DNA from: a phage
Reading direction: 5' to 3' (one strand)
NCBI GenBank assembly: GCA_025829515.1
Contig: GCA_025829515.1_4865.1
Length of the DNA: 64,000 bases
Shown here: in pieces, positions 20,486 through 64,000 of the stretch
Layout: each line of letters opens with the position of its first letter
Numbering within the stretch: the first letter of the stretch is position 1
Notes under the pieces: model-generated
What the model was told of the DNA's origin: nothing
The model's input: the letters and a program-made list of their open reading frames with translations, nothing else
Databases searched by the model: none
Translations under genes and position numbers: made by a program

Positions 20486-21013
20486 ATGGGATACCGTATA
20501 GATTTATCAAAAACCCCGAAACAGATTCTGGTTGAGAGAATCAATTACGTTTTTAAGTTATCGTATAGTGAAAATAACTACGAGTTTAACCCACGTGGGG
20601 TGTGGCCGCTAACCCAAGCAGAGCGACGCGCTAAAGGTGTGGAGTCTAAAGTTGCGGCGCGCTTTGTAAATGGGGTACACGGCACTCAAGAGTTTTACCT
20701 GACTCGTGCGGACTTAAACAAGTTACTTAAAGACGTAACGGTTGAAGTCCCGAAGGGTGCGGCAGAATGGAGCCATGAATTAGTTCCGTATATTGTCGAT
20801 GAGCTGGGTCTCCAGCTTGACACCTACGATATCATGGTTGAACCGATTACCCCAGAAATGGAATCGTATGAGGCGCGCTTAATCCCGCACCATCTATCTT
20901 TCAAAGGCACGATTGCGATTACTTTTGTTGACCCAACTCCCCGTAAGCTGGCGCAGCTGGTAACTAAACGGGCACTCGACGGGTTTCGCCCAGGAGAATT
21001 TTTAAATGGCTAA
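20486..21013 (+). CDS. hypothetical protein (175 aa)
   Basis: ORF overlapping the next gene start by 8 nt. Confidence 0.7.
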   Translation: MGYRIDLSKTPKQILVERINYVFKLSYSENNYEFNPRGVWPLTQAERRAKGVESKVAARFVNGVHGTQEFYLTRADLNKLLKDVTVEVPKGAAEWSHELVPYIVDELGLQLDTYDIMVEPITPEMESYEARLIPHHLSFKGTIAITFVDPTPRKLAQLVTKRALDGFRPGEFLNG

Positions 21014-41756: not shown

Positions 41757-41798
41757 GGCTACCACACGATCATATGTGTGGTAGCTTATTTTTTTTGT
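41757..41798 (+). terminator. rho-independent terminator
   Basis: ggctaccacac-gatcatat-gtgtggtagc plus ttattttttttg. Confidence 0.85.
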
Positions 41799-41812
41799 TT
41801 CTGGAGGCGTTA

Positions 41813-42346
41813 ATGGCAGACCGCTATCAGCCCGACCTAACACTCTCGTCGAAAGCGCTTGTCGTGGCGTTGATTAATCACGATAACGGCTTGTCATTAT
41901 CGCCTGACGAGATTGTGATAAGCGGGGTAGGGCCTATCGACTTAGGTGTTGAAAGTGCCCGTACCACGCAAGCGTACATTGCAAAAGCACGTAAACCTAA
42001 CGGTAAGAAGATTACCGTCTATTACGACCGTCTAGCTGCTAATAAGATTATCGACCCGCAAGGACCGATACTGGTTACTGTAGCTCCCGGCGACACCTAT
42101 GCTGATTTAGCGACAGTTGTAAACCAGTTGTGCGGTTTAAACTTGTCACGTGAGGACATCTCGACAGGGGTTATTACACCAACAAACGAGCCGTTGATTG
42201 CACCGATGAGTGACGATTCGCCGGCTTGGACGGCTACCTTTACATTCACGGCGTTTAATGAAAAAGAAGCTGTGGCAAGTCTGGATGAAGAAACTGTTTT
42301 ATGCATCGGTGATGATGCAGTGTTAACCTACGGAGACGATGCATAA
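41813..42346 (+). CDS. hypothetical protein (177 aa)
   Basis: ATG at 41813 with GGAGG 5 nt upstream (track start 41774 lies inside the terminator). Confidence 0.7.
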   Translation: MADRYQPDLTLSSKALVVALINHDNGLSLSPDEIVISGVGPIDLGVESARTTQAYIAKARKPNGKKITVYYDRLAANKIIDPQGPILVTVAPGDTYADLATVVNQLCGLNLSREDISTGVITPTNEPLIAPMSDDSPAWTATFTFTAFNEKEAVASLDEETVLCIGDDAVLTYGDDA

Positions 42347-42822: not shown

Positions 42823-45800
42823 ATGCGCAAATTTAAAATCTCTGCTAAACGACATGCGCTGAACTACGCACTGTCGCTGGCTTACGGACATCAGGACTTT
42901 GTTCGTCGAAACACCGGCTTAACTAACGACGCCCACAATGACCATTATCTGATTAACCCAGAAGGGGTGCTATCTAATAACCGGCATTTCATTGCTGACT
43001 CCATGGCAGTGTATCAACCTAATGGTGACGCCACCACAGAAGGTCAATCGTTGCTGATTATTGGCTACTGTCACATGTACATTGCTACCAAAAACCAGAT
43101 GTGGTTAGATGCGGCGATTCGTGCATGGGAAGCGTACGCTACCTACTATTACGCAGGTCAGGCCATTCCCGATTCACCACAACGTTGGATTTGTAACTGG
43201 CTAGTTAACGGTAAAGAGCCAGTGCTGGCAGACTATCCGGTGCATCCGACCGAGCCAACCCACGGTGGTTATAAGTGTGTACCGGTAACGTTTACGAACG
43301 GGCGTTGCCAGATACCCCAAGGCGCACCATTCTTTGGTGAATATCTGAACAATTTCTTTTCTGCGCATCGTGGCCATCCTACTTGGGGTGCGGTTAATGC
43401 CGACGTACAGAAAATTAAGGAATCGGAAGACGGGTTAATTGACTGGTCTAAAGTCCCTGATTACTTAATCGTCAATCCAGAGAAACCTTACGATGTAAAA
43501 GCGTGGGTGGACTGGAACACGATGCTAAACGACCCAACCGGATATACACCAATGTGGGGCGGTTCTACCTCGAAAGGTCCGCGGTACGAACCTGACTGGT
43601 TTGTTGTGTGGACGGGTGAGAAGGTTCAAGACGGCGATGTCATCGAATCCGGTTTACCTGATGCCCAGAAAGGAACCGTACAATTAAAGGACACTAGTAT
43701 TAACGGTGTATATTTGATTAACTACGCTTCCCAGGTACCTGTAGAGCACGGCGGATATTTGTTTGACCGCAATGAGCCGTGGCACAACCGTCCGGTTCAT
43801 ACCCCGTTAAAAGGGTCTGTTAACCAGATGGGTAACGCGGCAGATGCGGAAGTGTGGTTTATTGATGCCTGTTATCTGCTCTGGCGTATCACGGGTGAAC
43901 CGCGCTATAAAGCCGCATTAGACTCTGTGTTCTATACAGCGCACGAGTACACGTATATCGATGCGAAGGACAAGTTTTTCCGTCGTTCTAAGCTAGCCGA
44001 AACGCCATTTACAGATGGTATCTCGTACGACTATAAATACCCCAGCACTGTTGAGGTCGCTTACAGTCGTGATGAAAATGGTGATATTGTGTTCCGTTCT
44101 GAGGAAGCTGTGCAGAACTTTATGGAACAGCAAGCCGTGCGTTTCAGGATAAACAGTCAATCGAAGTTACGTGTGACATATGGCGGTGTTTGCGACAACG
44201 GTGATGCACTGGCGTGTAAAGTGATGGTGGATATTAACCCCGTCAAAGCGGATACTGAAGAAGTAAACTGGTACGGCTGTACGCTTCCGGGATCAACATC
44301 GATGGAAGTAGAACAGCATGACATCGATTTAGGGCATCTGGCCAGAATGACCAATCCGGCCAACGGCGAAGATTACATCATTGCCGATGCGCGAGCATGT
44401 TCGGACTACGGTGGGTGTACGTGGCAGGAGAAGTTTGAGAACAACATTTACGATGGTCGTTCAGGCACAATCGTAGAAGCGTTATTCCCGAACGACGATG
44501 CGGGTTTCATTATCGGTTTCTGGTTAACCGATGCCGGCGTTGCACCCCCGCAGTCAATTGTCTATCGTGCCGATGCTGATTTCAACTTCCGTTTCGAAGA
44601 TACCGACAAGTGGCGTTGGTGGTGGATGTTGCCCGCGACTAACGGGGAATGGAAACAGGTTATTATTCGCCCTGAAGACGCAACACTCTCGGGCTATCAA
44701 CCTGACCACGATACTGATGTCGAAACAAAACCGGCTGCGCCAAACTACACAACTATCGATCAGGTAACCATACTGCCCGATTCGGCTGTGGAGAATGCGC
44801 ACTTTAGCTGGTATTGCGTAAACGATGTTCCGCCACTGTTTAATGCAGATGATGGTTGGACGTTAACGTTCCGTATTGTAATTCGGGGAGGTTCTGCATT
44901 TACGGGTAAAGTGGGCGATTGTACGATAAAAGATTACCGTCTTGACTCGCTCGCGTATTGTCCAGGTACGATACCGTTCTCGAACATTTATTCGGAAGGA
45001 ACGTATCAGCTAGGTGCATGGCACGGGATGCCGTATCCCGGCTATCAGTATCCGTTTATGTACACCATACACACCGATGATCGCTACAAAGACTGGCTCT
45101 TAAATCAGATTCGGTTTATGCACGATTCACAAACCAACTACCAAACGCAGATAGGTGAGTTAGGTCCAGGTTGTGCGGCGTATATTTGGAACCGTTGGGA
45201 TAACTACTCTTACGGCCCGGCAGATACGTGGACAACGTTCCATTGGGGCGATGGACATCCGTGGGCAGGTTATCAGCCGCGCGCGTATAACGCCGCTGCG
45301 CGTTGTTGGTACGAATTAGTTGTGCGTGGTAAAGAGGTTCCACCTGAGCTAGTAGTGTACGTTGAAAATTGGGCTAAGTGGCTCGTAGGGTTCTTAGACC
45401 GCTTTGACAACCACACCCCGAATGAATTCCCTACGGCACCAAATAAACCGGTATGGGTAGAGAATGATTTCACAGCACATATGTGTGCGCTCTGGATAGC
45501 AGGCAGTGCTTACGCAGCAATGGCCGGCTGTACAGTGGAAGGGTTGAGCCGTATTATGGATATGGGGATGAAGGAGATGGGTGATAACTTCACCGTCACC
45601 GACATTCCAGGAAAAGCCATTAACGGTGCCTGGTCTCCGTGGGCAAATCCTACCACGGATAACGGTCAGGCTTTTGGGTTTTATACTGGAGAAGCGATGC
45701 GCGCCATCGGATTGTATCTCCTCTATAAAGAACACGGCCCAGGGCATGATATTTATCGTGACTTGGCAATCCCCGACCACACAACAGCCTCGCTCGATAT

Positions 45801-45840
45801 AACGTTTACTATCCCAGACGATCCGCTCGAAACTAATTAA
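42823..45840 (+). CDS. large Trp/Tyr-rich protein, possible tail-associated enzyme (1005 aa)
   Basis: Very long ORF rich in aromatic residues; N-terminal region loosely resembles alpha/alpha-toroid glycosidase-like folds. Function is speculative. Confidence 0.3.
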   Translation: MRKFKISAKRHALNYALSLAYGHQDFVRRNTGLTNDAHNDHYLINPEGVLSNNRHFIADSMAVYQPNGDATTEGQSLLIIGYCHMYIATKNQMWLDAAIRAWEAYATYYYAGQAIPDSPQRWICNWLVNGKEPVLADYPVHPTEPTHGGYKCVPVTFTNGRCQIPQGAPFFGEYLNNFFSAHRGHPTWGAVNADVQKIKESEDGLIDWSKVPDYLIVNPEKPYDVKAWVDWNTMLNDPTGYTPMWGGSTSKGPRYEPDWFVVWTGEKVQDGDVIESGLPDAQKGTVQLKDTSINGVYLINYASQVPVEHGGYLFDRNEPWHNRPVHTPLKGSVNQMGNAADAEVWFIDACYLLWRITGEPRYKAALDSVFYTAHEYTYIDAKDKFFRRSKLAETPFTDGISYDYKYPSTVEVAYSRDENGDIVFRSEEAVQNFMEQQAVRFRINSQSKLRVTYGGVCDNGDALACKVMVDINPVKADTEEVNWYGCTLPGSTSMEVEQHDIDLGHLARMTNPANGEDYIIADARACSDYGGCTWQEKFENNIYDGRSGTIVEALFPNDDAGFIIGFWLTDAGVAPPQSIVYRADADFNFRFEDTDKWRWWWMLPATNGEWKQVIIRPEDATLSGYQPDHDTDVETKPAAPNYTTIDQVTILPDSAVENAHFSWYCVNDVPPLFNADDGWTLTFRIVIRGGSAFTGKVGDCTIKDYRLDSLAYCPGTIPFSNIYSEGTYQLGAWHGMPYPGYQYPFMYTIHTDDRYKDWLLNQIRFMHDSQTNYQTQIGELGPGCAAYIWNRWDNYSYGPADTWTTFHWGDGHPWAGYQPRAYNAAARCWYELVVRGKEVPPELVVYVENWAKWLVGFLDRFDNHTPNEFPTAPNKPVWVENDFTAHMCALWIAGSAYAAMAGCTVEGLSRIMDMGMKEMGDNFTVTDIPGKAINGAWSPWANPTTDNGQAFGFYTGEAMRAIGLYLLYKEHGPGHDIYRDLAIPDHTTASLDITFTIPDDPLETN

Positions 45841-50914: not shown

Positions 50915-50960
50915 AGGGAGCTTCGGCTCCCCTTCTTTTTTGTTTCCTTTTCTTTTTTTG
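50915..50960 (+). terminator. rho-independent terminator (UUCG tetraloop)
   Basis: gggagc-ttcg-gctccc followed by a very long T-rich run. Confidence 0.8.
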
Positions 50961-51062: not shown

Positions 51063-51860
51063 ATGTCTTTTACTTCAAAACAGAATCTGCTAAAACTCAT
51101 CAACGAAGAGAATAAGATAAGCCCACCGCTTACCTTTGACGATGTTGATATCGGACTGCCGGAGGTTGTGTCAGTAGACGGTCGTGATTCGGAGGTAGTC
51201 CTTACCTCGAAGATGCGCGGTGATGAAGGTACGCAAGTGATTGTGGACTACCATCGTCGCCCATTAGAGGACTACCTTACAGGCGATGTTGCCTTTGGAG
51301 ACGAGGACGTGCAAACCACGCACGACTTACTCGCGGCGATTAACGAGCGTTTTAATCTGTCTATCTTACCTGAGGATATCGAAGATAACCCCATTGATGG
51401 ACAGACGCACACAGTCGTTGCTGTTGAAACTTCCCACGAGTGGCGAAGTCAAGCGGTCATCGAGCTGAAACCTGCTACACCTCTGGCAGAAGTAGTAACC
51501 AATACAGAGTTGAGCGGTCTTCTGTACCCGGATCACCAGGACATCCAGTTGGGTCAGGCGTATATCTATTCGCGTGACATCGATTGTAGCCACATCTCTC
51601 GTTTCCTGAGCCTCTTAGCGGTCGGTATCGAGGTAGATGACACGGCGTTGGCAATCGAACTCAACAAATGTGTTCCTGAGATTTGGGTAGCTGAAGATAC
51701 CCCATCCCCGTATAACCTGCGTGGTGCCACTGTCGTATTCGACGGCGTACCTGCAGACTTGCCGGGAGCAAATACGGCGTTCGCGAATGTCGTGTCAGTG
51801 CAACTGACCGATAAATGTACGAACTTCCAGGGCAGCCTCAACCTACACTTTAACAACTAG
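51063..51860 (+). CDS. paralog family 1 member 1, virion/fibre-like (265 aa)
   Basis: Shares an N-terminal domain of about 90 aa (LL..IN..N ... NT ... YDR ... L) and a C-terminal LH(F/Y)N motif with six downstream paralogs. Confidence 0.7.
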   Translation: MSFTSKQNLLKLINEENKISPPLTFDDVDIGLPEVVSVDGRDSEVVLTSKMRGDEGTQVIVDYHRRPLEDYLTGDVAFGDEDVQTTHDLLAAINERFNLSILPEDIEDNPIDGQTHTVVAVETSHEWRSQAVIELKPATPLAEVVTNTELSGLLYPDHQDIQLGQAYIYSRDIDCSHISRFLSLLAVGIEVDDTALAIELNKCVPEIWVAEDTPSPYNLRGATVVFDGVPADLPGANTAFANVVSVQLTDKCTNFQGSLNLHFNN

Positions 51861-51870
51861 GAGGGTATAG

Positions 51871-52713
51871 GTGTCTATTTACGATAAGCCCTCGAAAGAG
51901 ATGTTGTTAGATGCTATTAACCGACAGAACGGATTAACGGCCAATCCACTCACATGGGAGCAGGTTGCAACTGGCTTCCCTGAGTCTGTCCAAACGCCTG
52001 GCGCTGACCGGAATACGCGTGTGCTCTTATACGGGTTGAACGGCAAGGGCTACAAAGGCAACGTTACGCTCGAATACGACCGTATCGAAATGGAAATTCT
52101 GTTCAGGAACGTAATACCGGTAGTCGTTGCCGACCCGGTAAATAAACTCTCTGAGTTGTTGCCGTTTCTGAATGCGAAATACGGCTTGTCTTTAGTTGCC
52201 GATGATATCGTTGACCAGTCAGTAAAAGATTTGGGAGAAAGCTGGTTAATCGATGTGACTATTAAGCCCGGTTGCTTGGCCTGGCAAGGTGGTTTCCGTT
52301 TACGCTTTGCGAAGTTCTTCCCGAACTTGGCGGATGTGGTGACGGATGTTGACCTCAGCGCAATAATCGCACCGTTCGTGGTTGCTAGTAAACCACAGGC
52401 CGAGTATGTGGCGTATGGTTACGATTGGACTGAACTGCAAAAACAGTTCACCACCGATTGGGTTTACAACCGTGCAATCACTGCAGCGGATGTTGAGTTG
52501 TTGAATGAAGTGGTGCCATTAAAGTTTGCATATGTGACGGGGGCGAATGCGCAACCTGAACAAATTGCACTCCAAGGTGCACGATTTATGGGGATAACTT
52601 CAGTCACACCGAACGATAGTTACAACCCCGATTATCAGCGTGTGGCGATTATCAAGCTAGCTGCGGACAGCAACTACGCCGGTAATCTCATCCTTCATTA
52701 TCTCCCGATATAA
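51871..52713 (+). CDS. paralog family 1 member 2 (280 aa)
   Basis: GTG start with GAGGG 5 nt upstream; family N-terminal domain; ends LHYLPI. Confidence 0.7.
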   Translation: MSIYDKPSKEMLLDAINRQNGLTANPLTWEQVATGFPESVQTPGADRNTRVLLYGLNGKGYKGNVTLEYDRIEMEILFRNVIPVVVADPVNKLSELLPFLNAKYGLSLVADDIVDQSVKDLGESWLIDVTIKPGCLAWQGGFRLRFAKFFPNLADVVTDVDLSAIIAPFVVASKPQAEYVAYGYDWTELQKQFTTDWVYNRAITAADVELLNEVVPLKFAYVTGANAQPEQIALQGARFMGITSVTPNDSYNPDYQRVAIIKLAADSNYAGNLILHYLPI

Positions 52714-52723
52714 GGATTTTGAC

Positions 52724-53569
52724 ATGCCACTTTTAGCCACAGCTGAAAAGATTATTATCGCGGAAGTTAACGTCGAAAACAATCTCGATTTAAAAGTCGA
52801 GGATGTTGTTTTTGGTGTCCCTGCGATTCCAACGTCTGACGAAGACTTGGCAAAAGCTAACGGTCACAACGCGATGGTGCGCATTCAGGCATTGGCCACG
52901 GCTAATGCTATCGGTGCCACTACCGTGTATTACGATCGTGTTGACTTCGCAGACATGTTTACCGATCCGGACGGGATTCAACCTTTACGTGTTCCTGCGC
53001 GTCTCGATGCTGTTTACCAGATGCATGACGTGGTCGGGTTAATTAACCAGTATTACGGTCTCAGCCTTAAACCTGCAGATGTGGTGAATACCGAAATCGA
53101 CAGGAAGACATGGCGTGTGGATCTGGTTGCCACGCCCACTTCTTTAGGTTGGATAGGGCAACAACAGGTACAGCTGTTACCAGGCGATGCCTTGCTTCCT
53201 GCAAACTTCGAACCGTTAACAGTGACACCTTACGAGTACCCGTATTTCAACATCAAGGTCGGTCAAGGTGCAGTTTATTCGTATCCCTGGCGCTTTGATA
53301 ATTTCGCGGAGGAATTTCAACGACTAGGTGCTGCGATAACCACAGAACGTCTGGCACAGATTCTCAAAACGGTCACCGGGGATAACTGGACAACGTACCG
53401 TAACCCTATCGACTTTAACCTTCGTGAAGCCGTCGTCGTCTATAACGGGCGTAACAAAGCGGAATTACCAACCAACCCAGCAGTCGACAACGTGCTGATT
53501 GTGGAGCTGTCGTTGTACTGTCTGAATTTTGGCGGGCGTTTGTATTTGCATTACAACGACCCTGATTAA
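52724..53569 (+). CDS. paralog family 1 member 3 (281 aa)
   Basis: Family member by position and C-terminal LHYN motif. Confidence 0.65.
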   Translation: MPLLATAEKIIIAEVNVENNLDLKVEDVVFGVPAIPTSDEDLAKANGHNAMVRIQALATANAIGATTVYYDRVDFADMFTDPDGIQPLRVPARLDAVYQMHDVVGLINQYYGLSLKPADVVNTEIDRKTWRVDLVATPTSLGWIGQQQVQLLPGDALLPANFEPLTVTPYEYPYFNIKVGQGAVYSYPWRFDNFAEEFQRLGAAITTERLAQILKTVTGDNWTTYRNPIDFNLREAVVVYNGRNKAELPTNPAVDNVLIVELSLYCLNFGGRLYLHYNDPD

Positions 53570-53590
53570 TCCTGAGTAAAGGAAGTAAGA

Positions 53591-54502
53591 ATGAAACCTT
53601 TAAACAAAACGTCCGATCAGCTGGTTCTGGATTTTATTAATGAGAAAAACCCAGACGCAGAACTGGAACTTTCTAAAATAACGCTCGGCACACCGACCCC
53701 TATTGTCGATGAAGGTGCCGATCGCAATACCAGCATGACCCTGACTGCGAAAAAGAACTCCGGGTACATCGGTACTCAGGACGTGACTTATAATCGCCTG
53801 GAAGGCGGTGCGCTGTTCCGTAATGTAACCGCATACCTCGACGTTAAACTGCCGAAAACCACCACCGACCTGCTGACGACCCTGAACACCCAATACGGAT
53901 TGAAGCTGACCGAAGACGATATCGTTCCGGCGGCTATTCCGGAAAATACCAACCCGCCGCTGACTAACCCGAACGATCCGGACCCAGCACCGGTTGACCA
54001 TGTCATTACCTTCAAAGAAGACTGCTACGCTTATCTGGGCAGCATCCCGGTTAAAATCGGTGCTAAGCCTCAGGTTGGTGAACGTCTGAGTCTGGTGGTA
54101 ACACAAACCAAGCTCGACGGCCTGGTTTACCCAGATGGTCCAAGCGAAGCGAAGGGTCAGGGCTACATCTACTCTTACGGTGTAGACTGCACAGCAATCG
54201 CAGCATTCCTGAAAGTACAGACGAAAGGTGTTATCGCTGGCGACTCTGCATTCCCGGTTGAGCTGAATAAAGTTGTGCCGGAACTGTGGGTTGCATCTGA
54301 TGAGCCTGCGGATTATAACCTGAAAGGTGCTAACGTGTTGTACGTTGGTTCTACTACTGACGATGGCACTGCTTCAGGCGACGATCCTAAGAAACCGGTT
54401 GAAGGTGCAAACACTGCTTACAACCAGGTTCTGCTGCTGCAGCTGGATGACACTCTGTGCACCAACTTCCAGGGCGTCATGTACCTGCACTTTAATGCCT
54501 AA
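53591..54502 (+). CDS. paralog family 1 member 4, codon-optimised and probably the abundant member (303 aa)
   Basis: Family N-terminal domain; markedly stronger high-expression codon bias than its neighbours; the only member followed directly by a terminator. Confidence 0.7.
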   Translation: MKPLNKTSDQLVLDFINEKNPDAELELSKITLGTPTPIVDEGADRNTSMTLTAKKNSGYIGTQDVTYNRLEGGALFRNVTAYLDVKLPKTTTDLLTTLNTQYGLKLTEDDIVPAAIPENTNPPLTNPNDPDPAPVDHVITFKEDCYAYLGSIPVKIGAKPQVGERLSLVVTQTKLDGLVYPDGPSEAKGQGYIYSYGVDCTAIAAFLKVQTKGVIAGDSAFPVELNKVVPELWVASDEPADYNLKGANVLYVGSTTDDGTASGDDPKKPVEGANTAYNQVLLLQLDDTLCTNFQGVMYLHFNA

Positions 54503-54514
54503 TTAGGCCTCGCT

Positions 54515-54556
54515 GGGAGGAGGAAATCCTCCTCCTGGCTACTCCTTTCTTTTTTG
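54515..54556 (+). terminator. rho-independent terminator inside the paralog array
   Basis: ggaggagg-aaat-cctcctcc plus T-rich run. Confidence 0.75.
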
Positions 54557-54571
54557 GCCGAGGAGGCTATT

Positions 54572-55411
54572 ATGGCTTTATATAGTCTGTCTCAGCGACA
54601 ATATCTGTACGATGCGATTAATGCCGAAAACCCGGATGCTGTTCTACCGATGGGTTTAGACAATGCTATCATCGGTACGCCGAAAGCAATCACACCGACA
54701 GCAAGCGGTGCCAATACTGAGATTATCATTCGTGGTCGTCAAGGTCGTGGCTATATCGGTCCTCAGACGTTCCGTTATAAGCGCTTGTCGCTGAACGACT
54801 TATTTAAGAACATGACACCTCAGGTAACTGCACCGAATGCCTACGGTTGGTTGAACGTGGAGTCGAAACGTACTGCGTTTGCGCAGAACCTGAACGGTCG
54901 TTATGGATTAAACCTGGTTGCAGACGATATCCCAGAACAATACGTTTATCTGAACGTAAACAACACGATGCGCATTAACGCTAGCTGTATCCAATACACT
55001 GGCAGCATCACCTTTATGTCTATCCGGGGTAAGAATAGTCTCGAAGACCTCGTGGTAAACGACATCTTGTTGGCTTTGAACCACCCTGCAGCAGCAAGCA
55101 CTGGTAAGAAATACATGGGCTTCTTGACGTACGGGGAAGACTTTACCGATGAAGTGCAGGTTATGGCCTCGTTTAAGAACGGGCGAATGGATGTAGGAAG
55201 TAACTTTGATTTGGGTTACACGTCCAATCTGATGGCCACATTGGTCGCACGTGGGGTACCGTCGTTTGATCCGACGAACTGCACAATTACCCGCTACAAA
55301 ACGAGTGAGTTGGCGACCGCCAATAAAGCGTACGATAACGTATTGCTGATTACCGGCATTCAGAACGACCCGAAAGTAATCGGCGAGTGTATGTTGCACT
55401 ACAACAACTAG
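54572..55411 (+). CDS. paralog family 1 member 5 (279 aa)
   Basis: ATG at 54572 with GAGGAGG upstream (track start 54554 is TTG inside the terminator tail). Confidence 0.7.
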   Translation: MALYSLSQRQYLYDAINAENPDAVLPMGLDNAIIGTPKAITPTASGANTEIIIRGRQGRGYIGPQTFRYKRLSLNDLFKNMTPQVTAPNAYGWLNVESKRTAFAQNLNGRYGLNLVADDIPEQYVYLNVNNTMRINASCIQYTGSITFMSIRGKNSLEDLVVNDILLALNHPAAASTGKKYMGFLTYGEDFTDEVQVMASFKNGRMDVGSNFDLGYTSNLMATLVARGVPSFDPTNCTITRYKTSELATANKAYDNVLLITGIQNDPKVIGECMLHYNN

Positions 55412-55421
55412 GAATTAGCGA

Positions 55422-56309
55422 ATGGCTATTTATCAACCTTCTAAAGACGTCCTGTTGGCAGCAGTGAACGCACAGAACTCGCTTGCTGTTAAGATGACTG
55501 ACATCATCTGGTCCTCGCCAAAGGACATCCGTGGTACGGAGAAGGAAACGCTGACTAACCGTAACACGCAAATTAAAATTACGGCAGATGGGGTAACGGG
55601 CTCTACCTGGTCGGGTAAGAAAAATGTCTTCTACAACCGCATGAAAGTCGAAGACTTGTTAGTGCTGATTGGTGACACGTTGGCGATCGGCCCATCCAAC
55701 GAAACCTTGTATGCGGCCATTCCTGGACTGAACCAACGTTACGGTTTTGTTCTGGAAGAAGCTGACCTGCAGGACGCAGATATCGAATGGAACGGTGATA
55801 AGACCGAAGGTACTGTGCGCGTTGTTGCACATCCGGAGTCTATCGGCTGGGTTGGACAGGCGACATTTAAAGTCGTGAAAGGCGATGAGTCGTTAGTCTC
55901 TGCGGTCACTACTAACGTCCTGACCGGTCTGAAATACCCGAACGGTCAGATGGGTTCCGAAACCGTTACTGCGGTCATTGCAGAGGTTTATTCCTACCCG
56001 TACAACTTCACCAAATACCGTGATGAGTTGCTGGCATACGTGCCGGGTATTCTGTCCGGGCAGCCGTTAACGGATATGGTTAACCTGCTGAAAGATATCA
56101 CGGGTACTGCATGGGTAGCGACCACCTCCGCTTCCTACGGTTTGGCGGGCGCGGAGGTTATCAGCGTTGGTCTGAATGACCCTGTTGCAATGCCGACAAA
56201 CGCGAAGTACAAGTATGCGCTGGTGTTGAAACTGCCTGTTACCTGTACCACCATCGTCGGAACGTTGTATCTCCAGTTCAACGATCTGGACGATCCAAGC
56301 GAGGTATAA
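55422..56309 (+). CDS. paralog family 1 member 6 (295 aa)
   Basis: Family N-terminal domain; ends LYLQFNDLDDPSEV. Confidence 0.7.
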   Translation: MAIYQPSKDVLLAAVNAQNSLAVKMTDIIWSSPKDIRGTEKETLTNRNTQIKITADGVTGSTWSGKKNVFYNRMKVEDLLVLIGDTLAIGPSNETLYAAIPGLNQRYGFVLEEADLQDADIEWNGDKTEGTVRVVAHPESIGWVGQATFKVVKGDESLVSAVTTNVLTGLKYPNGQMGSETVTAVIAEVYSYPYNFTKYRDELLAYVPGILSGQPLTDMVNLLKDITGTAWVATTSASYGLAGAEVISVGLNDPVAMPTNAKYKYALVLKLPVTCTTIVGTLYLQFNDLDDPSEV

Positions 56310-56312
56310 TTG

Positions 56313-57140
56313 ATGATCAACTATGCTAAGCCGTCAAACGAGTTGGTCTTTGACCTCATTAACCGGGATAACCCAAACCTACCTATTAAAGCGTCGCCGG
56401 CAAACTGCTACGTGGAGAAAGTGACACAGGTTCCCGTTAATGCAGCTTCCAACAACCGCAATACGTCGGCACGCTTGCGCGGTATTCAGGGTTCTGGATT
56501 TCGAGACGCAATCACCGTTTACTACGACCGTGTGAACTTAGCGCGGTTATTGCCGTGGGGGCCTTCCGTCCAGGCGCAGTTCGTCACGTTTGACGCACCC
56601 AACCTCCACTCAGCCTTTTCGGTGCTCTTGGATACCTACGGAGTAAACTTCTCCGCAATCGATATCCAAAACTACTCACTGTTTGGTGCCAATACCCCAA
56701 ATTACACCAATACACAGACCATTGCAGCGCTATCGACATCTCCGGCTTATATCGGTTCTGCGACGTTGCGTTATAACCGTGGTTTACCGGTACTAGACAC
56801 TTCGGTGAAATCGGATGTCTTGAATGCGATTCAAGAGCCTATTTCACCGTCTCTCGGTAAGAAGTGTATTGATTTGTTGACGTACGGTATTGACTTTACC
56901 GCGTATAAAAACCTACTGACAGTAGATGCTTCTGGCCTACCGCAGTGGGCTGGTTTGCGTAAGGTGTTGGATGACCTGGGTATTCCGAACTACGCGGGGC
57001 CACTGAACAGCAACACCGTTCAGGATGTGCCGACTTCCACCGCTCAGTTCGCTAACAAATCGTACGACCGCGTGGTTATCCAAACGGGTATCGATGAGGA
57101 AGGCGTGAAAGGCGTGGCGTACTACCACTATAACAGCTAA
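56313..57140 (+). CDS. paralog family 1 member 7 (275 aa)
   Basis: ATG at 56313 (track start 56310 is TTG); family N-terminal domain; ends YYHYNS; terminator follows. Confidence 0.7.
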   Translation: MINYAKPSNELVFDLINRDNPNLPIKASPANCYVEKVTQVPVNAASNNRNTSARLRGIQGSGFRDAITVYYDRVNLARLLPWGPSVQAQFVTFDAPNLHSAFSVLLDTYGVNFSAIDIQNYSLFGANTPNYTNTQTIAALSTSPAYIGSATLRYNRGLPVLDTSVKSDVLNAIQEPISPSLGKKCIDLLTYGIDFTAYKNLLTVDASGLPQWAGLRKVLDDLGIPNYAGPLNSNTVQDVPTSTAQFANKSYDRVVIQTGIDEEGVKGVAYYHYNS

Positions 57141-57145
57141 GTGTA

Positions 57146-57170
57146 GGGGCTCTTCGGAGCCCCATCTTTT
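57146..57170 (+). terminator. terminator hairpin (UUCG tetraloop)
   Basis: ggggctc-ttcg-gagcccc followed by atctttt. Confidence 0.7.
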
Positions 57171-57187
57171 GGCGATGCGGAGTCCCT

Positions 57188-58600
57188 ATGCTATTTTACT
57201 CGAAGGAGTCGGCACTGCTTGTATACGACCAAGTCAATCGGGATAACCCTGATTTAGTTATTAAGCTGACGCCGGCTATCGCTGCTTTAACCAGTGGCCC
57301 AACCTCAGTTACGTTAAACCAACGTAACACCAAAGCTGTTTTCACCGGGTATCCAGGGACAGGTGTACAAGGTAATGTTACCGTGTACTACGACCGGATT
57401 AACCTGGCCACCTTATTTAATTTTGTGCCGACTGTGGCTATCAAAGACACAGTCTTAACGGTACGAGACGCGTTACCTGCAATAAACGACGCATTAGGAC
57501 TTACATTAGTTGCTTCTGATTTGCAGTCACCTGACGCAAGTTTACCTAAACCGAGCGTTTCGCCGCAGACGTTGAAATTAAATATCTCAGGCAATTGCCC
57601 TGCGTTTACAGGCAGCTTAACGATACGTTATACCGTCCCGAGTGGTGCAATTTACCCCGATTCTGGACCTGGCCCTAAAACGTTGCTGCAAGGTAACACT
57701 ATCGCGGGTTATTTCGGAACAACCAGAACTGCAGAGTTGTTTACACACTCTCAACTTCTTAATGCCACTATATCGGCCGGTGCGTTACCACCGGTACATT
57801 CTGGTGCCGAAGGTTGGTACAAGTTCTTTTACCAGGGTAGGGTTATTTACCTCCCGATCAGTCCTGTCGCTGGCTCCATCTCCTGGAATACGTTATATAC
57901 AAACGGACTCGTTTACGGAACAGACGATAACGGTAAATACCCTGCAGCGACGCCCGTTAACCAGGGACGCATCATTAGCTTTACAGGCGCAGACAACAAA
58001 AGGTTTTACTTCCGTGTTCGTCTACCTAGTGCCGGGAAAGACCCATACGTCAGCGGCACCCCAACTGCCGCTGAGTTAGCAGGTAGTGAGTTTGAGATGT
58101 TCAACTTTCTGTATAATGGAACGTGGGACAAACCGATTAACAGTTACTGGACGCTGTTCTGTTTATTGAAAGATACACTGAAGACCAACGTCGCCCATCA
58201 TCGCATGGCGACGTTGTCTGGAGCAAGTTGGACAAACTTAGAAAAATCATCGAGTGCGGGCAACTACTACTGGTTCCCGGTGCTGGAGTTGGTGGATAAG
58301 TCCACAGTTACCTTGGGTTTAGAAGATATCCACGGTACGGCAGATTACAGTCTCCAACCGTGCAGCGTGTCCGCAGAAAACACATTTAGTCTCAAGCCGT
58401 TAGTGCTCGGTAATCCGGATACTACCGATTTCGAACCGGTAGTTGTTACTTCAGAAAACAGTTTCGCACTGCATCCGCCTGCTTTAATGCTGCCGAAGAC
58501 AGTCGACTTCCAACCTATTGCGGCTACCGCTGAAATGTATACGCCCCCTGACAAGACAACGTTAACGTCTCTTAACGGTGAACTGGACGGCTTTAAGTAG
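57188..58600 (+). CDS. cassette gene A1: family 1 N-terminal domain plus GPGP module, fibre/receptor-binding candidate (470 aa)
   Basis: N-terminus homologous to family 1; central GPGP...GYFG...ELF...YGTDD...RLP module; C-terminal NGELDGFK shared with A2. Confidence 0.7.
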   Translation: MLFYSKESALLVYDQVNRDNPDLVIKLTPAIAALTSGPTSVTLNQRNTKAVFTGYPGTGVQGNVTVYYDRINLATLFNFVPTVAIKDTVLTVRDALPAINDALGLTLVASDLQSPDASLPKPSVSPQTLKLNISGNCPAFTGSLTIRYTVPSGAIYPDSGPGPKTLLQGNTIAGYFGTTRTAELFTHSQLLNATISAGALPPVHSGAEGWYKFFYQGRVIYLPISPVAGSISWNTLYTNGLVYGTDDNGKYPAATPVNQGRIISFTGADNKRFYFRVRLPSAGKDPYVSGTPTAAELAGSEFEMFNFLYNGTWDKPINSYWTLFCLLKDTLKTNVAHHRMATLSGASWTNLEKSSSAGNYYWFPVLELVDKSTVTLGLEDIHGTADYSLQPCSVSAENTFSLKPLVLGNPDTTDFEPVVVTSENSFALHPPALMLPKTVDFQPIAATAEMYTPPDKTTLTSLNGELDGFK

Positions 58601-58611
58601 AGGTATCATCT

Positions 58612-59610
58612 ATGTCTTTTACTTTGCGTTGGAAAAATCCAAACGTAATCTCTACGGTAGTAAAAATCTACCGTGATGTTAAAGATATCACACCAAGCGC
58701 TTTGCCTGAACCGATTGCAACGCTCTCAAACGGCGAGACAGAATGGCGTGATACCACCGCCACACCAGGCGCAACCTATTATTACCTTCTGACGGTAACC
58801 GCCAACGGTAAAACAGTGGCATCGTCTAGCCAGAAATATACCATTGAACTGAAGCGGGGAATCGGTCCAATGACTATTCTAAACGGTGACGACCGTTTAG
58901 GGTTTATGGGTGCGGTTCCTTACGACGAACAGTGGCTTCCGTCGCAAATGCCACCTGCATTTTTGGCGATGTTCCCTAACCTACTAACCGATCGTGTGGC
59001 GTTGTATAAATTTACCCGAAACGGGAAGATCTATTACATGCTATCTAGCACGTCGCAGTTCCCGAATACGCCTGTGGACTGGGCTTCCCTCTATCAAGCT
59101 GGTTTAGTCTACGGTACAGGCGATGCTGGCCCAGAGAACGGCCATGGAACGCTACCGGCCACTCCACAAGACGCTAAGATAGTCCACAGAGGGGATACGT
59201 ACATTATGCGTCTTCCTCGCGGCCTGACGACGTCTAGCGAGTCTCCTGCGTATCCTTTCGTGGCTGACTACAATGGGAAAACCCACGATGAAATCGCTTC
59301 TCTAACCAACCCGTGCGAGTATAACGATTTACTTTACACGATGGTTAACGAGGTGCCGAAGAAACAACGTTGGGCTAACTGGGCAACAATCGGTTATACT
59401 TATCTGGGACAGGGTACTTTGGGAACCTTGGCACAGTATTTCGGCGGTGGTGTTCTCTGTATGGAACACGACACCGCGGAAGACCGTGTGCTCCATCGTG
59501 GTATTTTTAACAATGCCGGTGGAACACCCGTATCCACGATTCAGCGTATAAACTATTTATCACCCACCACGAAAGGGCGCTACTACCCTATCTTTGAACT
59601 GGTCGAGTAA
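58612..59610 (+). CDS. cassette gene B1: FN3/Ig-like N-terminal domain plus shared module (332 aa)
   Basis: FN3-like N-terminus (W..P ... KIYRD ... TYYY..TVTA); paralog of 61988-62974. Confidence 0.7.
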   Translation: MSFTLRWKNPNVISTVVKIYRDVKDITPSALPEPIATLSNGETEWRDTTATPGATYYYLLTVTANGKTVASSSQKYTIELKRGIGPMTILNGDDRLGFMGAVPYDEQWLPSQMPPAFLAMFPNLLTDRVALYKFTRNGKIYYMLSSTSQFPNTPVDWASLYQAGLVYGTGDAGPENGHGTLPATPQDAKIVHRGDTYIMRLPRGLTTSSESPAYPFVADYNGKTHDEIASLTNPCEYNDLLYTMVNEVPKKQRWANWATIGYTYLGQGTLGTLAQYFGGGVLCMEHDTAEDRVLHRGIFNNAGGTPVSTIQRINYLSPTTKGRYYPIFELVE

Positions 59611-59619
59611 GGGGCAGTC

Positions 59620-60543
59620 ATGACTATACGGTTAAGCTGGCCGTCCCAAGCCAGCAAAGGTCTTACCGCGATTGAAATCTACCGCAAGGAAGGATGGAAC
59701 GCAACAATCGACGTTTACAACCCAGGCACACCCCACGCCACCTTATCCGGTAGCGCGGTAGAGTTCGTAGATAATATCGATACCCTGACGAAGAATACAA
59801 CTTATCGTTACTGGGTAGCTGCTGTGAAAGATAATGAACGACTTATCGGCAATCCGATTACGCAAGGGTTCTATCCGGACACTGGACCGGGGCCACAAAC
59901 TATTTTGCGTGGCGATTGGGCGTCAGGCTATTTCGGTACGGTATCTAATACCGAGTTCTTTAATACTGCCGAGTTAAAACTCATGTTAACCGCGCAGCAG
60001 GGAAACATGTTTACTTACGACCCTCAGGAATGGCACAAGTTTATTTTCCGTGGGCGAATTGTCTTCTTCCCAGCGACGATGCATTCGAAAAGCAACTCGG
60101 TACAAATGGCGTATCAGTACGGCATGATGTACGGGACCGATGATGTCGGAAGTATTGTTCCGCAGGGAGCCACGGCGACTAAACAAGATTGTAAGGTCAC
60201 GAAGGATGGTCGTACGTACCGTATCCGATTACCTTACGCAGTCCCGTACGACGCGGCACTCTCAGGACAGGATTACAACAACGGTGAATGGCGAAACACA
60301 ATGGGCCGTTTGTATCCTGTCGGTGCACAGTACGCAGCCCTCGGTCTTGGTGCGATTGACTCACTTGAAAGACAAGGCGCGACTGCGCAGCCGAATGAGT
60401 CAGGTGCCGCTGTATTAGCTCCTTTGTGGAGCAACAACATATTCGCTTATGCGTATGGCACCGTGCCTATGGGGATTAGTAACACCGCAGGTGTCGGGAA
60501 CTCGGCCACGATATTCTTTGCTTTTGAATTAGTCTTACCGTAA
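59620..60543 (+). CDS. cassette gene C1: FN3/Ig-like N-terminal domain plus GPGP module (307 aa)
   Basis: IEIYRK ... TYRYWVAAVKD FN3-like; DTGPGPQ..GYFGTV..ELF module; paralog of 62977-63876; ends ELVLP. Confidence 0.7.
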   Translation: MTIRLSWPSQASKGLTAIEIYRKEGWNATIDVYNPGTPHATLSGSAVEFVDNIDTLTKNTTYRYWVAAVKDNERLIGNPITQGFYPDTGPGPQTILRGDWASGYFGTVSNTEFFNTAELKLMLTAQQGNMFTYDPQEWHKFIFRGRIVFFPATMHSKSNSVQMAYQYGMMYGTDDVGSIVPQGATATKQDCKVTKDGRTYRIRLPYAVPYDAALSGQDYNNGEWRNTMGRLYPVGAQYAALGLGAIDSLERQGATAQPNESGAAVLAPLWSNNIFAYAYGTVPMGISNTAGVGNSATIFFAFELVLP

Positions 60544-60556
60544 TGGAGTAAATACC

Positions 60557-61975
60557 ATGGGGTTGTATACAGAACCTTCAATGGAACTGCTCTGCCAACA
60601 AATTGTGCGTGACAATCCCGGTTTAGCAGGAAAAATCACCCCTGACTCCATTGGGGTCAGGGGTGTTCCTGTTGCGAAAAACGTTAACGGACGAAACACT
60701 CAGATTACGTTGGTAGGAAAACCCGGTAAAGGATTTGCTGGGGAAATAACGGTATATTACGACCGGTTGAATCTGGCCAGTCTATTTAAGTCTGGCCCGA
60801 ATATGGTGAGTATTCCACGTAGCGCACAAACCCATGCGGAAGCGTTACCGGCGTTCAATGAATTGAACGGGTTGAACTTAACCGCGAGTGACATCACCAG
60901 TCCAAACGTTGCATTAATGAAATACGCTACGCCGGAAACTGTAACTCTGACGGCGCACGCTAACTCCTTGTGTTATACCGGGTCATGCAAGATGACCTAT
61001 GTTTACGAACCGATTGCGATGTATCCGAAGTCGGGTCCTGGGCCAAAAGGATTAATGGCCGGTAATGAGTTATACGGATTCTTTGGGCTGGTAAGCGCGG
61101 AAGAGTTATTCACATCTGATGAAATGGTGTATGCCCTCTATAACGGCACCAACTGGCCTAACCGCTACGCTATCAAGTGGCTCAAATTCTTTCTGAATGG
61201 GGCGGTAGTGTTTGTTCCGACCCGTGCGATTTGCAACGTTACCTGGGCAGACCTGTACAACAAGGGTGCAATATTTGATTCCGGAGACGCAGGACCTCGC
61301 CCGAAGTCGACTTACACACCTGTCGATGTTGAACAGTTGAAATACATGGTAAAACGGGATGATGAAGGAACGCATTATTTCAGAATGTCTATCCCGTATT
61401 ACACCGAGAACGCCGCCGCGCCTGATTGGAGTAAACCGCCGTCAATCACCTCTATCCTGTCACTGACCAGCAAATTGGGGTCGGTGAACGTATATGGGGA
61501 GTGGGGAACTCTTAGCACGACTGATGCTAACTTCCTGGATTACGTGTGGTTACGACATCAGTTCGGTGCCGACCAAGCGTATTACCAGTCTATCAGTGGG
61601 AGCTATCGTTCATACACCTACATCTACACCTCTTCTGGCTTTTGGCCAATCCTGGAGATGTTTGATGTTGCCAATGAACCTGTGCCGTTGATTGACGAAG
61701 GTGCAGAGCTAACATGGGCACCGTCCGTGGTTACTCTGACGGACATCGACCAAAATGAATCGCTTCGTGTGGTGCCTATTACGGAAACCTCCGCTGCAGC
61801 GAATCCACGTCCTCTGCTTGCCGCGACGGACAATGATGAACGTGCATATTCCGTCGCGGTAACAGGCATGGCTAGCGTTAAGATTAGACCGATTATTCTC
61901 ACGACTGACCAAATCGCCCAACCTTCAAAAATTACTCTGGGCGATACTAACGGTGAGTTGGATGGATTCCAATAA
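60557..61975 (+). CDS. cassette gene A2 (472 aa)
   Basis: Paralog of A1 (shared N-terminal domain, GPGP module, C-terminal NGELDGFQ). Confidence 0.7.
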   Translation: MGLYTEPSMELLCQQIVRDNPGLAGKITPDSIGVRGVPVAKNVNGRNTQITLVGKPGKGFAGEITVYYDRLNLASLFKSGPNMVSIPRSAQTHAEALPAFNELNGLNLTASDITSPNVALMKYATPETVTLTAHANSLCYTGSCKMTYVYEPIAMYPKSGPGPKGLMAGNELYGFFGLVSAEELFTSDEMVYALYNGTNWPNRYAIKWLKFFLNGAVVFVPTRAICNVTWADLYNKGAIFDSGDAGPRPKSTYTPVDVEQLKYMVKRDDEGTHYFRMSIPYYTENAAAPDWSKPPSITSILSLTSKLGSVNVYGEWGTLSTTDANFLDYVWLRHQFGADQAYYQSISGSYRSYTYIYTSSGFWPILEMFDVANEPVPLIDEGAELTWAPSVVTLTDIDQNESLRVVPITETSAAANPRPLLAATDNDERAYSVAVTGMASVKIRPIILTTDQIAQPSKITLGDTNGELDGFQ

Positions 61976-61987
61976 GAGGTAACGACA

Positions 61988-62974
61988 ATGGCTTTTACAA
62001 TTCGTTGGACGAACAATAACCCTGGGGCTTCGACCGTGAAGCTGTACCGCGACACCAAACCTCTGGTGCGTACGGCATTACCTGAACCTCTGGCAACGTT
62101 CACTGACGGGGAAACTGAGTATACTGACCGAACGGCGATACTGGGGACAACGTATTACTACATGACCACCGTGACAGTGGGAAGCCGGACACTGTTCAGT
62201 CCGCAGAAATCAATTCTGATTCAGAACCGTCGCGGTATCGGCATCGTGGCTCCACAGTACGGTGATGACCGCTTTGCGTATTACGGGTATGTGGCGTACG
62301 GTGAATTACCTAGCGCGGGTGATTATCCGCCAGGGTTTGTGGCCCTTTCTGGATACGACCCAACTGTTAAGCCGGGCTTGATGAAGTTCCAGCTAGACGG
62401 TAAAATTCTGTATCTGTTTAGTGGTCTTCGTGTGAACGGCAACACGCTGTATAGCCGTGATGCGATTTATAACGCGGGTTTGCTGTACGGTGTGGCGGGA
62501 CCTGGTCCGGAAGGCGGTCATGGCGATTTACCTGACGTTGACCAGGCTGGGGAGTTTACGTGGTTGGGTGACCGCTATCGGATGCGCCTGCTGCGCGGTT
62601 TAACACTCGACAGTGAAAGCCCGGTCATGACACTCGATGCACAGTGGAACGGTAAACTCCATGACGCGTCACCGTATACTGCCGATAGCGAATACAACCG
62701 ACTCATCTATGGGATAAGTAGCTGGTTCCCAGAAAAGAAAAAAGTGATGTCCCTGATAAAGTGGTCGAACTCCAGCATATTCGGAAGTGGATCGCTGGTG
62801 GCAGGCCGTGGGGCGCATTGTCAGGAGTTTGACCCAGACCGTAAGTTGGGGCTGACGCGCGGATGGGCGGCGGCGGATTCCACTGATACCGTGGATAACC
62901 TCCAGCGTATACAACATGTCCCTGGTGCGACCGGCGGTATTTGGATTCCAGTAATCGAGCTTATCGAGGATTAA
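61988..62974 (+). CDS. cassette gene B2 (328 aa)
   Basis: Paralog of B1 (FN3-like N-terminus, GPGPEGGHG, ends IELIED). Confidence 0.7.
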   Translation: MAFTIRWTNNNPGASTVKLYRDTKPLVRTALPEPLATFTDGETEYTDRTAILGTTYYYMTTVTVGSRTLFSPQKSILIQNRRGIGIVAPQYGDDRFAYYGYVAYGELPSAGDYPPGFVALSGYDPTVKPGLMKFQLDGKILYLFSGLRVNGNTLYSRDAIYNAGLLYGVAGPGPEGGHGDLPDVDQAGEFTWLGDRYRMRLLRGLTLDSESPVMTLDAQWNGKLHDASPYTADSEYNRLIYGISSWFPEKKKVMSLIKWSNSSIFGSGSLVAGRGAHCQEFDPDRKLGLTRGWAAADSTDTVDNLQRIQHVPGATGGIWIPVIELIED

Positions 62975-62976
62975 TC

Positions 62977-63876
62977 ATGCCTATTACATTAAACTTTGCA
63001 CAACGGAAGCCACAGGCGCTCGATAACATTGAAATCTATCGCAAGACGCCGGGCAACGCCACCATTGATGTTAATGCACCGGGAACGCCTCTGGCAACCC
63101 TTCCGGGTGACGCTACATCGTACGAAGACAACGCTGTGGAAAACAACACCACTTACCGTTATTGGATTGCTGCGGTTAAAGACGGTGAGCGTGTCTTCAA
63201 CACCCCTACCGCCCAAGGGTTCTTTTTAGACACCGGGCCTGGCCCCCAGAAACTGTTATACGGCGACTGGCACGCTGGATACTTTGGAACAGTAACGCCA
63301 GCAGAGTTATTCACTAACGCGGAACTGAACAGCCTCGTGGTGAATATGTTCAGTTCCGCCGTTGGTGCCTGGCATAAGTTCATTTACAAAAACCGTATTC
63401 TGTTTATGTCCGATAACTCGATAATATACGCTAGCCCGCAGTTCATTTATAACCAGGGGCTGATGTACGGCCAGGATGGCAACGGATATGTGCCGAGCTG
63501 GGCTAGTGCACGTAACCAACGCCGCACGGTGACGAAAAACGGTTACGAATACGTGGTGCGCTTGCCGTATTTGTTCGACTACAAATACTGGACGTCTTTC
63601 GTTGGAGGCGGTAACACCGAGTTGTATCTCGACGGTGAGTGGTTTAACACCTTCGCGCGCCTGTACAACTACAGTGGGCAGTTTCCGCGCTTTGACGACC
63701 TTCCGGTCGGTTCAATCGATTCGGTTACTGCCCAACAATCTGCATTCTTTGCGGCTATGAATAACTCGTTCAGTCAGTGGTACAACCGTCCACCTTACCC
63801 AGAGTCGCCGACATGGAGTAACTACGGTACCACTACAGTGCGTTCTATTGCGGTACTTGAACTCGTTCTGCCTTAA
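62977..63876 (+). CDS. cassette gene C2 (299 aa)
   Basis: ATG at 62977 with GAGGA 6 nt upstream (track start 62941 is TTG inside B2); paralog of C1. Confidence 0.7.
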   Translation: MPITLNFAQRKPQALDNIEIYRKTPGNATIDVNAPGTPLATLPGDATSYEDNAVENNTTYRYWIAAVKDGERVFNTPTAQGFFLDTGPGPQKLLYGDWHAGYFGTVTPAELFTNAELNSLVVNMFSSAVGAWHKFIYKNRILFMSDNSIIYASPQFIYNQGLMYGQDGNGYVPSWASARNQRRTVTKNGYEYVVRLPYLFDYKYWTSFVGGGNTELYLDGEWFNTFARLYNYSGQFPRFDDLPVGSIDSVTAQQSAFFAAMNNSFSQWYNRPPYPESPTWSNYGTTTVRSIAVLELVLP

Positions 63877-63887
63877 CAGGAGACTTC

Positions 63888-64000
63888 ATGGGATTGTATA
63901 GCGCACCCGAACTGGAATTACTCTGCCAACAAGTCGTAAGGGATAACCCTGAACTCGCAGGAAGAATCAGCGCTGATTCGATTGGGGTGAGGGGTGTTCC
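63888..64000 (+). CDS. cassette gene A3, 5' partial (runs off the window)
   Basis: N-terminus MGLYSAPELELLCQQVVRDNPELAG is nearly identical in pattern to A2; GGAG upstream. Confidence 0.65.
   Translation, partial: MGLYSAPELELLCQQVVRDNPELAGRISADSIGVRGV

Follow-up and report, generated by a model that had tools for sequence, protein, structure and literature searches.

What do the tandemly repeated three-gene cassettes that fill positions 57188-64000 of a 64,000-nucleotide (nt) stretch of phage DNA (GenBank assembly GCA_025829515.1; "the window" denotes the whole stretch) encode, and what might a phage do with several diverged copies of them? Chimalliviruses such as phiKZ, SPN3US and Goslar are leading models for the phage nucleus and candidates for therapy, although little is understood of how they reach their hosts. 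For ten years no function has been assigned to the largest paralogue family of Salmonella phage SPN3US, and whether it sits on the head or in a filament cloud at the baseplate is now in dispute. The region under study matches 38 phage records by megablast, all of them members of Seoulvirus or close to that genus, with Proteus phage 7 at the top (99.1% DNA identity) and SPN3US at 97.6%; on these matches, the window is assigned to a Seoulvirus (SPN3US-type) jumbo phage of the Chimalliviridae. The genes and their family are already known (SPN3US gp145-153, paralog family B or DUF7941), and what appears to be new is the three-gene unit, its FN3 plus probably lectin-like architecture, a shared docking peptide, and the gain, loss and swapping of whole cassettes within a genus. 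We propose, as a judgement that we regard as evenly balanced, that each cassette specifies one distinct binding-head unit for the phage's system of DUF7941 filaments.

The region comprises A1-B1-C1, A2-B2-C2 and the first 37 codons of A3. In the open reading frame (ORF) list, the six whole genes and the truncated seventh lie on the plus strand and are separated by gaps of 2-13 nt. The A type is represented by A1 (57188..58600; 470 amino acids, aa; homologue of gp145) and A2 (60557..61975; 472 aa; gp148), the B type by B1 (58612..59610; 332 aa; gp146) and B2 (61988..62974; 328 aa; gp149), and the C type by C1 (59620..60543; 307 aa; gp147) and C2 (62977..63876; 299 aa from its ATG; gp150). C2 has an alternative TTG start at 62941 that would yield 311 aa; the ATG start agrees with the annotation in relatives. 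The 5′ end of A3 (63890..64000; gp151), truncated by the window edge, encodes the N-terminus MGLYSAPELELLCQQVVRDNPELAG, which is the same as in the A3 of Proteus phage 7. Thus, the ORFs and the sequence bear out an earlier note on this DNA, which had described a tandem A-B-C order with a third A at the window edge and sizes of about 470, 330 and 300-310 aa for A, B and C. That the array continues past the window, as the note had also held, is supported by the closest genomes: SPN3US and Proteus phage 7 have exactly three A-B-C cassettes, preceded by seven further genes, F1-F7.

The copies are diverged yet plainly homologous. Pairwise BLASTP aligns A1 with A2 at 30% identity (E 7e-62), B1 with B2 at 39% (E 2e-63) and C1 with C2 at 43% (E 7e-66), and comparison with cassette 3 of the 99%-identical Proteus phage 7 gives 38% for A2/A3, 47% for B2/B3 and 44% for C2/C3; the estimate of 35-40% in the earlier note holds for B, and was slightly high for A and slightly low for C. 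A module common to A, B and C, likewise foreseen, is recovered by significant BLASTP matches across the types (A1 158-310 with C2 85-231 at 35% identity, E 1e-19; A1 with B1, E 1e-7; B1 with C1, E 8e-14), and the alignment of the six window proteins has 13 invariant columns that include the GPGP, GYFG, KF and Y..G motifs already listed in that note, the B copies being the most diverged in the module (GIGP, GFMG). At the DNA level, the 5′ 114 nt of A2 and A3, at 75% identity, constitute the only direct repeat of at least 40 nt between 57000 and 64000; with so little DNA repetition, the duplication must be old and is visible only in the protein, and a recent DNA duplication or an assembly artefact was rejected. 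The orthologues of cassette 1 in other phage genera show 45-60% identity as against 30-43% between the paralogues, which supports the reading of an old, maintained duplication; in these comparisons, cassette 1 predates the split of Seoulvirus and the other compared genera, and SPN3US cassettes 2 and 3 are mutual closest relatives. Separately, a 13-bp perfect-stem hairpin, CACCCCTGACTCC-ATT-GGGGTCAGGGGTG, was observed at 60637-60665 inside A2, in its 5′ portion, where the sole stretch that still resembles A3 at the DNA level lies.

Relatives of this phage differ in both the number and the alleles of the cassettes, a variation for which the earlier note had proposed comparing related genomes. 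Three cassettes are found in SPN3US and Proteus phage 7 (Seoulvirus) and in phiEaH2 (Erskinevirus), two in Wellington (Wellingtonvirus) and one in CR5 (Derbicusvirus). Within Seoulvirus, SPLA3 has two cassettes and lacks the third (locus L009, 12868-13946); SPLA5c has a split B2/B3 hybrid with C2 and A3 missing and a 91-aa DUF7941 remnant (locus L006, 13801-16068); and JN03 carries a third cassette of the phiEaH2-cassette-3 type (locus L007, 13860-15861), whose A, B and C proteins are 56, 57 and 64% identical to those of phiEaH2 cassette 3 versus 29, 29 and 35% to those of the SPN3US third cassette. In JN03, a 77-aa remnant of an A gene lies beside this foreign cassette, and the two genes that follow the array in SPN3US (X and Y, see below) are absent. 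Every cassette examined across the four genera, including the whole-cassette replacement in JN03, has one A, one B and one C in that order, the neighbour-joining trees of A, B and C show the same groupings, and their identity matrices are correlated (r 0.82-0.83; Mantel p 1e-4). Hence, as judged from these genomes, the cassette is passed on, duplicated, lost and exchanged as a whole.

As to what the proteins are built from, the A proteins match DUF7941 (PF25613) in Pfam with 110.6 bits (A1) and 105.5 bits (A2), the cutoff being 27, though the match covers only profile positions 1-153 of 276, and F1-F7 match the same family over its full length; the A type thus shares its N-terminal domain (NTD) with the upstream seven-member family, as the earlier note had held. 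Custom hidden Markov models (HMMs) divide the A type into the N-terminal half of DUF7941 (aa 1-148), the shared module (aa 153-370, about 220 aa) and a tail of about 95 aa. In A1, these parts correspond to 57188-57631 (NTD, aa 1-148), 57644-58297 (module of putatively lectin-like fold, aa 153-370) and 58316-58597 (disordered repeat tail, aa 377-470, ending ...KTTLTSLNGELDGFK), all on the plus strand; in A2, they span aa 1-146, 153-370 and 375-472, the tail ending ...TNGELDGFQ. A structural model of A1 (28 homologues) gives predicted local distance difference test (pLDDT) values of 82-92 for both globular parts and 30-45 for residues 377-470, which are disordered, and its NTD has the fold of phiKZ gp127. 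The B and C types consist of an FN3 domain of about 80 aa followed by the shared module, with no C-terminal tail: FN3 at about aa 1-78 and module at aa 80-332 in B1, FN3 at aa 1-82 and module at aa 83-307 in C1, and the same two parts in B2 and C2. In a Pfam search of the window proteins, B and C matched no family, DUF7941 included, and single B or C sequences fall below the fn3 threshold; the profile of 86 homologues, however, matches the FN3 of the pectate lyase Pel3 (4u49, E 2.5e-5) and the "Fn3-like protein" 3mpc (E 9e-4), fold searches assign the FN3 beta-sandwich to the N-termini of both types, and the matches listed for the C1 model are dominated by FN3. The FN3 N-termini predicted earlier are therefore genuine FN3 domains by both profile and fold.

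The shared module, in turn, probably adopts a C-type-lectin-like fold according to the structural models, which, if true, would be new. Its R-L-P motif and downstream E-W presumably echo the W-R-L-P-T-x-x-E-W signature of FGE and DUF1566 domains. A derivation of the module from the C-terminal domain of DUF7941 was rejected (hhalign probability 0.1%); the two being unrelated, A is a domain-swapped DUF7941 protein. The deposited product names in Proteus phage 7 and Salmonella phage MET_P1_082_240 instead suggest that B and C are glycosyl hydrolases that degrade host surface polysaccharide. Those names are all that speaks for such an activity: no glycoside hydrolase family was recovered in Pfam at E up to 1, in the 86 relatives, among PHROGs names, or in PDB sequence or fold searches, and the structural matches are to FN3 and, probably, C-type-lectin-like domains. 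We accordingly rejected that identity, which we consider highly improbable.

An entropy profile over 86 diverse FN3-module proteins, in C1 numbering, divides the module into a conserved scaffold (83-205; mean entropy 2.3 bits; 117-138 aa across relatives), a hypervariable insert (206-295; 3.2 bits; 75-131 aa) and a final strand, W.PVLEL, that is conserved again (296-307; 2.0 bits). Compared with SPN3US, protein identity is 98.6-99.3% for F1-F6 and 98.7% for A1, and 95.5% for B1, 96.7% for C1, 97.9% for B2 and 95.7% for C2, i.e., B and C diverge 2-4 times more than F and A; 12 of the 13 differences in C2 lie within residues 174-288. No template/variable repeat pair of a diversity-generating retroelement occurs in 57000-64000, the rest of the window not having been searched for a reverse transcriptase; duplicated genes and exchanged cassettes, not targeted hypermutation, would therefore account for the diversity. 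An exhaustive profile search recovered the module in 1761 cluster representatives; among 50,697 phage genomes, it occurs in 115 records, all of chimallivirus-type jumbo phages, with 1-9 matching places each. In some large relatives, a single protein matches the module profile as many as nine times; others, encoded on contigs of about 250-275 kb, pair one or more modules with Laminin_G_3, Kelch or BspA-type repeats, and in three relatives the module is immediately preceded by Mtd_N, the Pfam N-terminal domain of the major tropism determinant. The architecture, in which DUF7941 or FN3 precedes a probably lectin-like module whose insert is hypervariable, suggests binding proteins. To this extent, it suits the putative receptor-binding or surface-decoration role put forward in the earlier note; the location, head or baseplate, is contested.

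The tails of the A proteins point to how they might be anchored. All three A proteins end in K-T/I-x-L-x-x-x-N-G-E-L-D/N-G-F, and an HMM of the A tail matches the C-termini of 175-aa NTD-only proteins of SPN3US, phiEaH2, CR5 and Wellington (E 3e-7 to 1e-4). The SPN3US representative, an NTD followed by the A-type C-terminal peptide, is gp160 by size and abundance. F1-F7 (51063..57140, plus strand; SPN3US gp138-144; delineated from the ORF list, Pfam and custom HMMs) are full-length DUF7941 genes whose products have an NTD, a linker with a T-x-T-x-L-x-G-L docking-type motif and the DUF7941 C-terminal domain; the TNGELDGF of A and gp160 resembles TNTELSGL in the linker of F1, TQTKLDGL in F4 and TTNVLTGL in F6. 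The remainder of the tail is a variable number of 26-aa repeats. A2 lacks one PRPL-type unit (472 aa versus 498 aa in SPN3US and Proteus phage 7), deleted at about aa 416-417 between two ...PRPL... direct repeats, and A1 of JN03 has an extra one (496 aa versus 470 aa), so that the length of the tail is polymorphic within the species, as judged from these orthologues. The idea that the repeats are fixed docking sites for B and C was set aside since their number varies within one orthologue, which makes them look like a spacer.

Three short ORFs far from the array were also observed. Two encode short DUF7941 proteins, at 20486-21013 (plus strand; 175 aa; Pfam E 3.5e-14; ending ...VTKRALDGFRPGEFLNG, a docking-type motif) and 41774-42346 (plus strand; 190 aa; Pfam E 6.2e-18), and are probably scattered members of paralog family B (gp83, gp237 and the like). 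The third, at 25314-25931 (plus strand; 205 aa), matches nothing in Pfam; its N-terminus is like the DUF7941 N-terminal pattern and its C-terminus, ...TITKLNGFRYRVFV, has a docking-type motif, and it may be gp122, a divergent candidate member named in the SPN3US papers.

Are these proteins part of the virion? The earlier note had not recognized that the genes belong to a published virion paralogue family of 20-21 members, SPN3US paralog family B (gp83, gp138-154, gp160/161, gp237; Thomas et al. 2016, 2017, 2023), which is DUF7941 (PF25613). All nine products, gp145-153, were detected in SPN3US virions by mass spectrometry (PMC5694885, Suppl. Table 1), so that both points on which that note had staked its reading, namely homology of the cognate genes and presence in the virion, came out in its favour. 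Their spectral counts per kDa (SC/M) range from 0.48 to 2.15, as compared with 0.93 for the portal (12 copies) and 8.84 for the tail sheath (about 264 copies) (PMC5694885); by our own arithmetic, this amounts to roughly 6-60 copies of each per virion, versus 100-280 each for gp141 (F4) and the 18.5-kDa gp160. The cassette proteins are thus of low to middling abundance. In phiKZ, gp126 and gp127 are located at the outer baseplate (cryo-electron microscopy, EM; PDB 9XQD; PMC13250141). In Goslar, DUF7941 proteins are modelled as a "fiber cloud" at the outer baseplate: purified gp22 forms filaments in negative-stain EM, AlphaFold predicts that a disordered linker docks on the NTD of the next subunit, head to tail, and gp23, an NTD with only the linker, is the most abundant family member (bioRxiv 10.64898/2026.04.21.720040). 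The reported receptor of SPN3US is the flagellum.

Building on these precedents, we propose that the module, if C-type-lectin-like as modelled, would be the ligand-binding part, and that the C-terminal peptide of A would, by analogy, be the same docking peptide that joins DUF7941 subunits head to tail. Given that A has both an NTD and the C-terminal peptide, and that the Goslar linker docks on the NTD, A could both accept and donate such a contact; A proteins would then be built into, or cap, filaments of abundant F-type and gp160-type subunits, F1-F7 being the presumed filament subunits that receive them. B and C are present in virions with neither a DUF7941 domain nor the peptide, and hence would reach the particle by binding their cognate A. 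In the least secure step, this contact might be made through a conserved face of the module, resulting in a three-module head comparable to the trimeric lectin-fold tips of Mtd, Lcl and Bd2740, or through FN3. Several diverged cassettes would endow one virion with several binding specificities for the first contact with the host, and a flexible filament cloud bearing several lectin-like heads would, again by analogy, suit the initial capture of a flagellum or a surface glycan. In its fullest form, this would be a heteromeric A/B/C lectin-like head that docks via a universal peptide on DUF7941 filaments, with specificity changed by the addition, deletion or swapping of cassettes and diversified by exchange of gene blocks rather than point hypermutation; so complete a version is a tentative proposal, and on balance an unlikely one.

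Several observations weigh against this proposal. Searches of Pfam and of PDB profiles revealed no link of the module to Lectin_C, FGE-sulfatase or DUF1566, with none for the six window proteins at E up to 1 nor for the 86 relatives at E up to 0.1; PDB sequence searches with the module profile and with A1 gave nothing meaningful, and the 86-sequence profile found FN3 domains only. The C-terminal peptide is absent from 4 of the 28 A homologues, and so is not universal. The case for an A-B-C complex consists of gene order, co-inheritance and the lack of another anchor, and linkage alone explains the congruent trees, which speak for block inheritance rather than physical interaction. Moreover, B2 and B3 appear to outnumber their A and C partners about twofold (PMC5694885). 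Finally, the whole family stays with the purified heads in two tailless mutants of SPN3US and its discoverers call the members head proteins, which conflicts with a purely baseplate-anchored filament.

The last point is the basis of a different explanation, whereby these are head proteins, internal and ejected or decorating the capsid surface, with no role in tail or baseplate filaments, and B and C are perhaps Hoc-type Ig/FN3 decorations. Capsid decoration proteins commonly carry FN3 or Ig-like domains. Thomas 2017 found all 20 members in purified virions and in one tailless mutant, and concluded that they are head proteins of unknown function; Thomas 2023 kept the assignment with a second such mutant, so that every member is listed under Head, gp160 and gp141 being further marked, with a query, as ejected from the head. 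On the other hand, the NTD matches phiKZ gp127, whose modelled position is in the outer baseplate; long filaments such as purified Goslar gp22 forms by itself could end up in head preparations by co-purification alone; none of the eight proteins processed by the prohead protease (gp45, 47, 50, 53, 54, 75, 81, 245) belongs to family B; and an FN3 domain joined to a lectin-like module with a hypervariable insert is the architecture of an extracellular adhesin. We therefore rate a pure head role as a serious but rather unlikely alternative. The conflict could possibly be explained by self-assembled filaments that co-purify with heads or by added attachment sites on the capsid or neck; external capsid or neck fibres would reconcile the head and baseplate data sets.

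A further alternative accepts binding and dispenses with the complex: A, B and C would be independent binding proteins, their order a relic of block duplication, with B and C attached elsewhere via FN3. The unequal spectral counts within a cassette (SC/M of 2.15 for B2 versus 0.99 for A2 and 0.86 for C2; PMC5694885) are consistent with it, as is the occurrence of FN3-module proteins in many chimalliviruses (201phi2-1, PhiPA3, RSL2), which were not checked for a full A-B-C cassette. Running counter to it are the invariant one-of-each order described above, retained even in the JN03 replacement, and the lack of any recognizable anchoring element in B and C, and we consider it doubtful.

The surroundings of the array yielded further observations. 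GC-rich stem-loops followed by T-rich runs occur at 50916-50931, just 5′ of F1, and at 57146-57163, between F7 and A1; the latter (GGGGCTC-TTCG-GAGCCCC, 57146..57163, plus strand) may separate the transcripts of the F block and the cassette array, and the two together suggest separate transcription units. They come from a consensus scan only, and such phages use their own RNA polymerases; a sigma-70 promoter scan, which is not relevant to phages of this kind, found 9 sites versus 14.6 in shuffled sequences. 3′ of the array in SPN3US and Proteus phage 7, X (439 aa) and Y (725 aa) precede an endolysin; both begin with the DUF7941 NTD (SPN3US locus L001, 22318-25829, past the window). Y has two NTD matches and a glycine-rich central region, and X and Y have in common a C-terminal segment of about 105 aa at 28% identity. 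SPN3US and CR5 have both genes; phiEaH2, Wellington and JN03 have neither. Upstream, a 1005-aa ORF at 42823-45840 (plus strand) goes by "tail protein" in the SPN3US annotation and by "glycosyl hydrolase" in that of Proteus phage 7, and matches no Pfam family. In phiEaH2 and Wellington, the F block directly follows an EPS depolymerase gene; here small ORFs occupy the roughly 5 kb between the 1005-aa ORF and F1.

If the binding-head proposal is true, nine genes would resolve into three co-inherited units with lectin-like variable heads, and a testable model would replace an undifferentiated list: it predicts the carriers of specificity, the scaffold proteins and the peptide that links the two. 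Nature offers variants in the two-cassette SPLA3 and in JN03, whose third cassette is foreign, and should cassette content track adsorption or host range, the cassettes would be targets for engineering the host range of jumbo phages.

Among known systems, the closest is SPN3US paralog family B itself: A1 to C3 are gp145-153 at 94-99% protein identity and X is gp154, the A proteins carry the N-terminal half of DUF7941 above the Pfam threshold, and the products are virion-associated by mass spectrometry. The differences are that B and C have no DUF7941 match and are members only via the shared module, and that the searchable SPN3US papers draw no distinction among the members, describing all of them as head proteins without a known function; they make no mention of the A-B-C periodicity, FN3 or lectin-like domains, a docking-type peptide or cassette copy-number variation. 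The Goslar and phiKZ family is placed at the outer baseplate, whereas SPN3US proteomics places it with heads, not tails. Moreover, the domains fused to DUF7941 in Goslar are reported as carbohydrate-binding, glycoside hydrolase or leucine-rich repeat/beta-helix, whereas at this locus another module, probably C-type-lectin-like, takes their place, with a spacer and a second docking peptide after it and two FN3-module partner genes alongside. Receptor-binding domains with a C-type-lectin fold are known from Bordetella phage Mtd, Treponema TvpA, Thermus TaqVP, the Legionella Lcl C-terminal domain (DUF1566), the Bdellovibrio Bd2740 fibre tip and invasin/intimin, to none of which a sequence-profile relationship was detected. 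Those examples are homotrimers or monomers; here, in contrast, three paralogous genes travel together.

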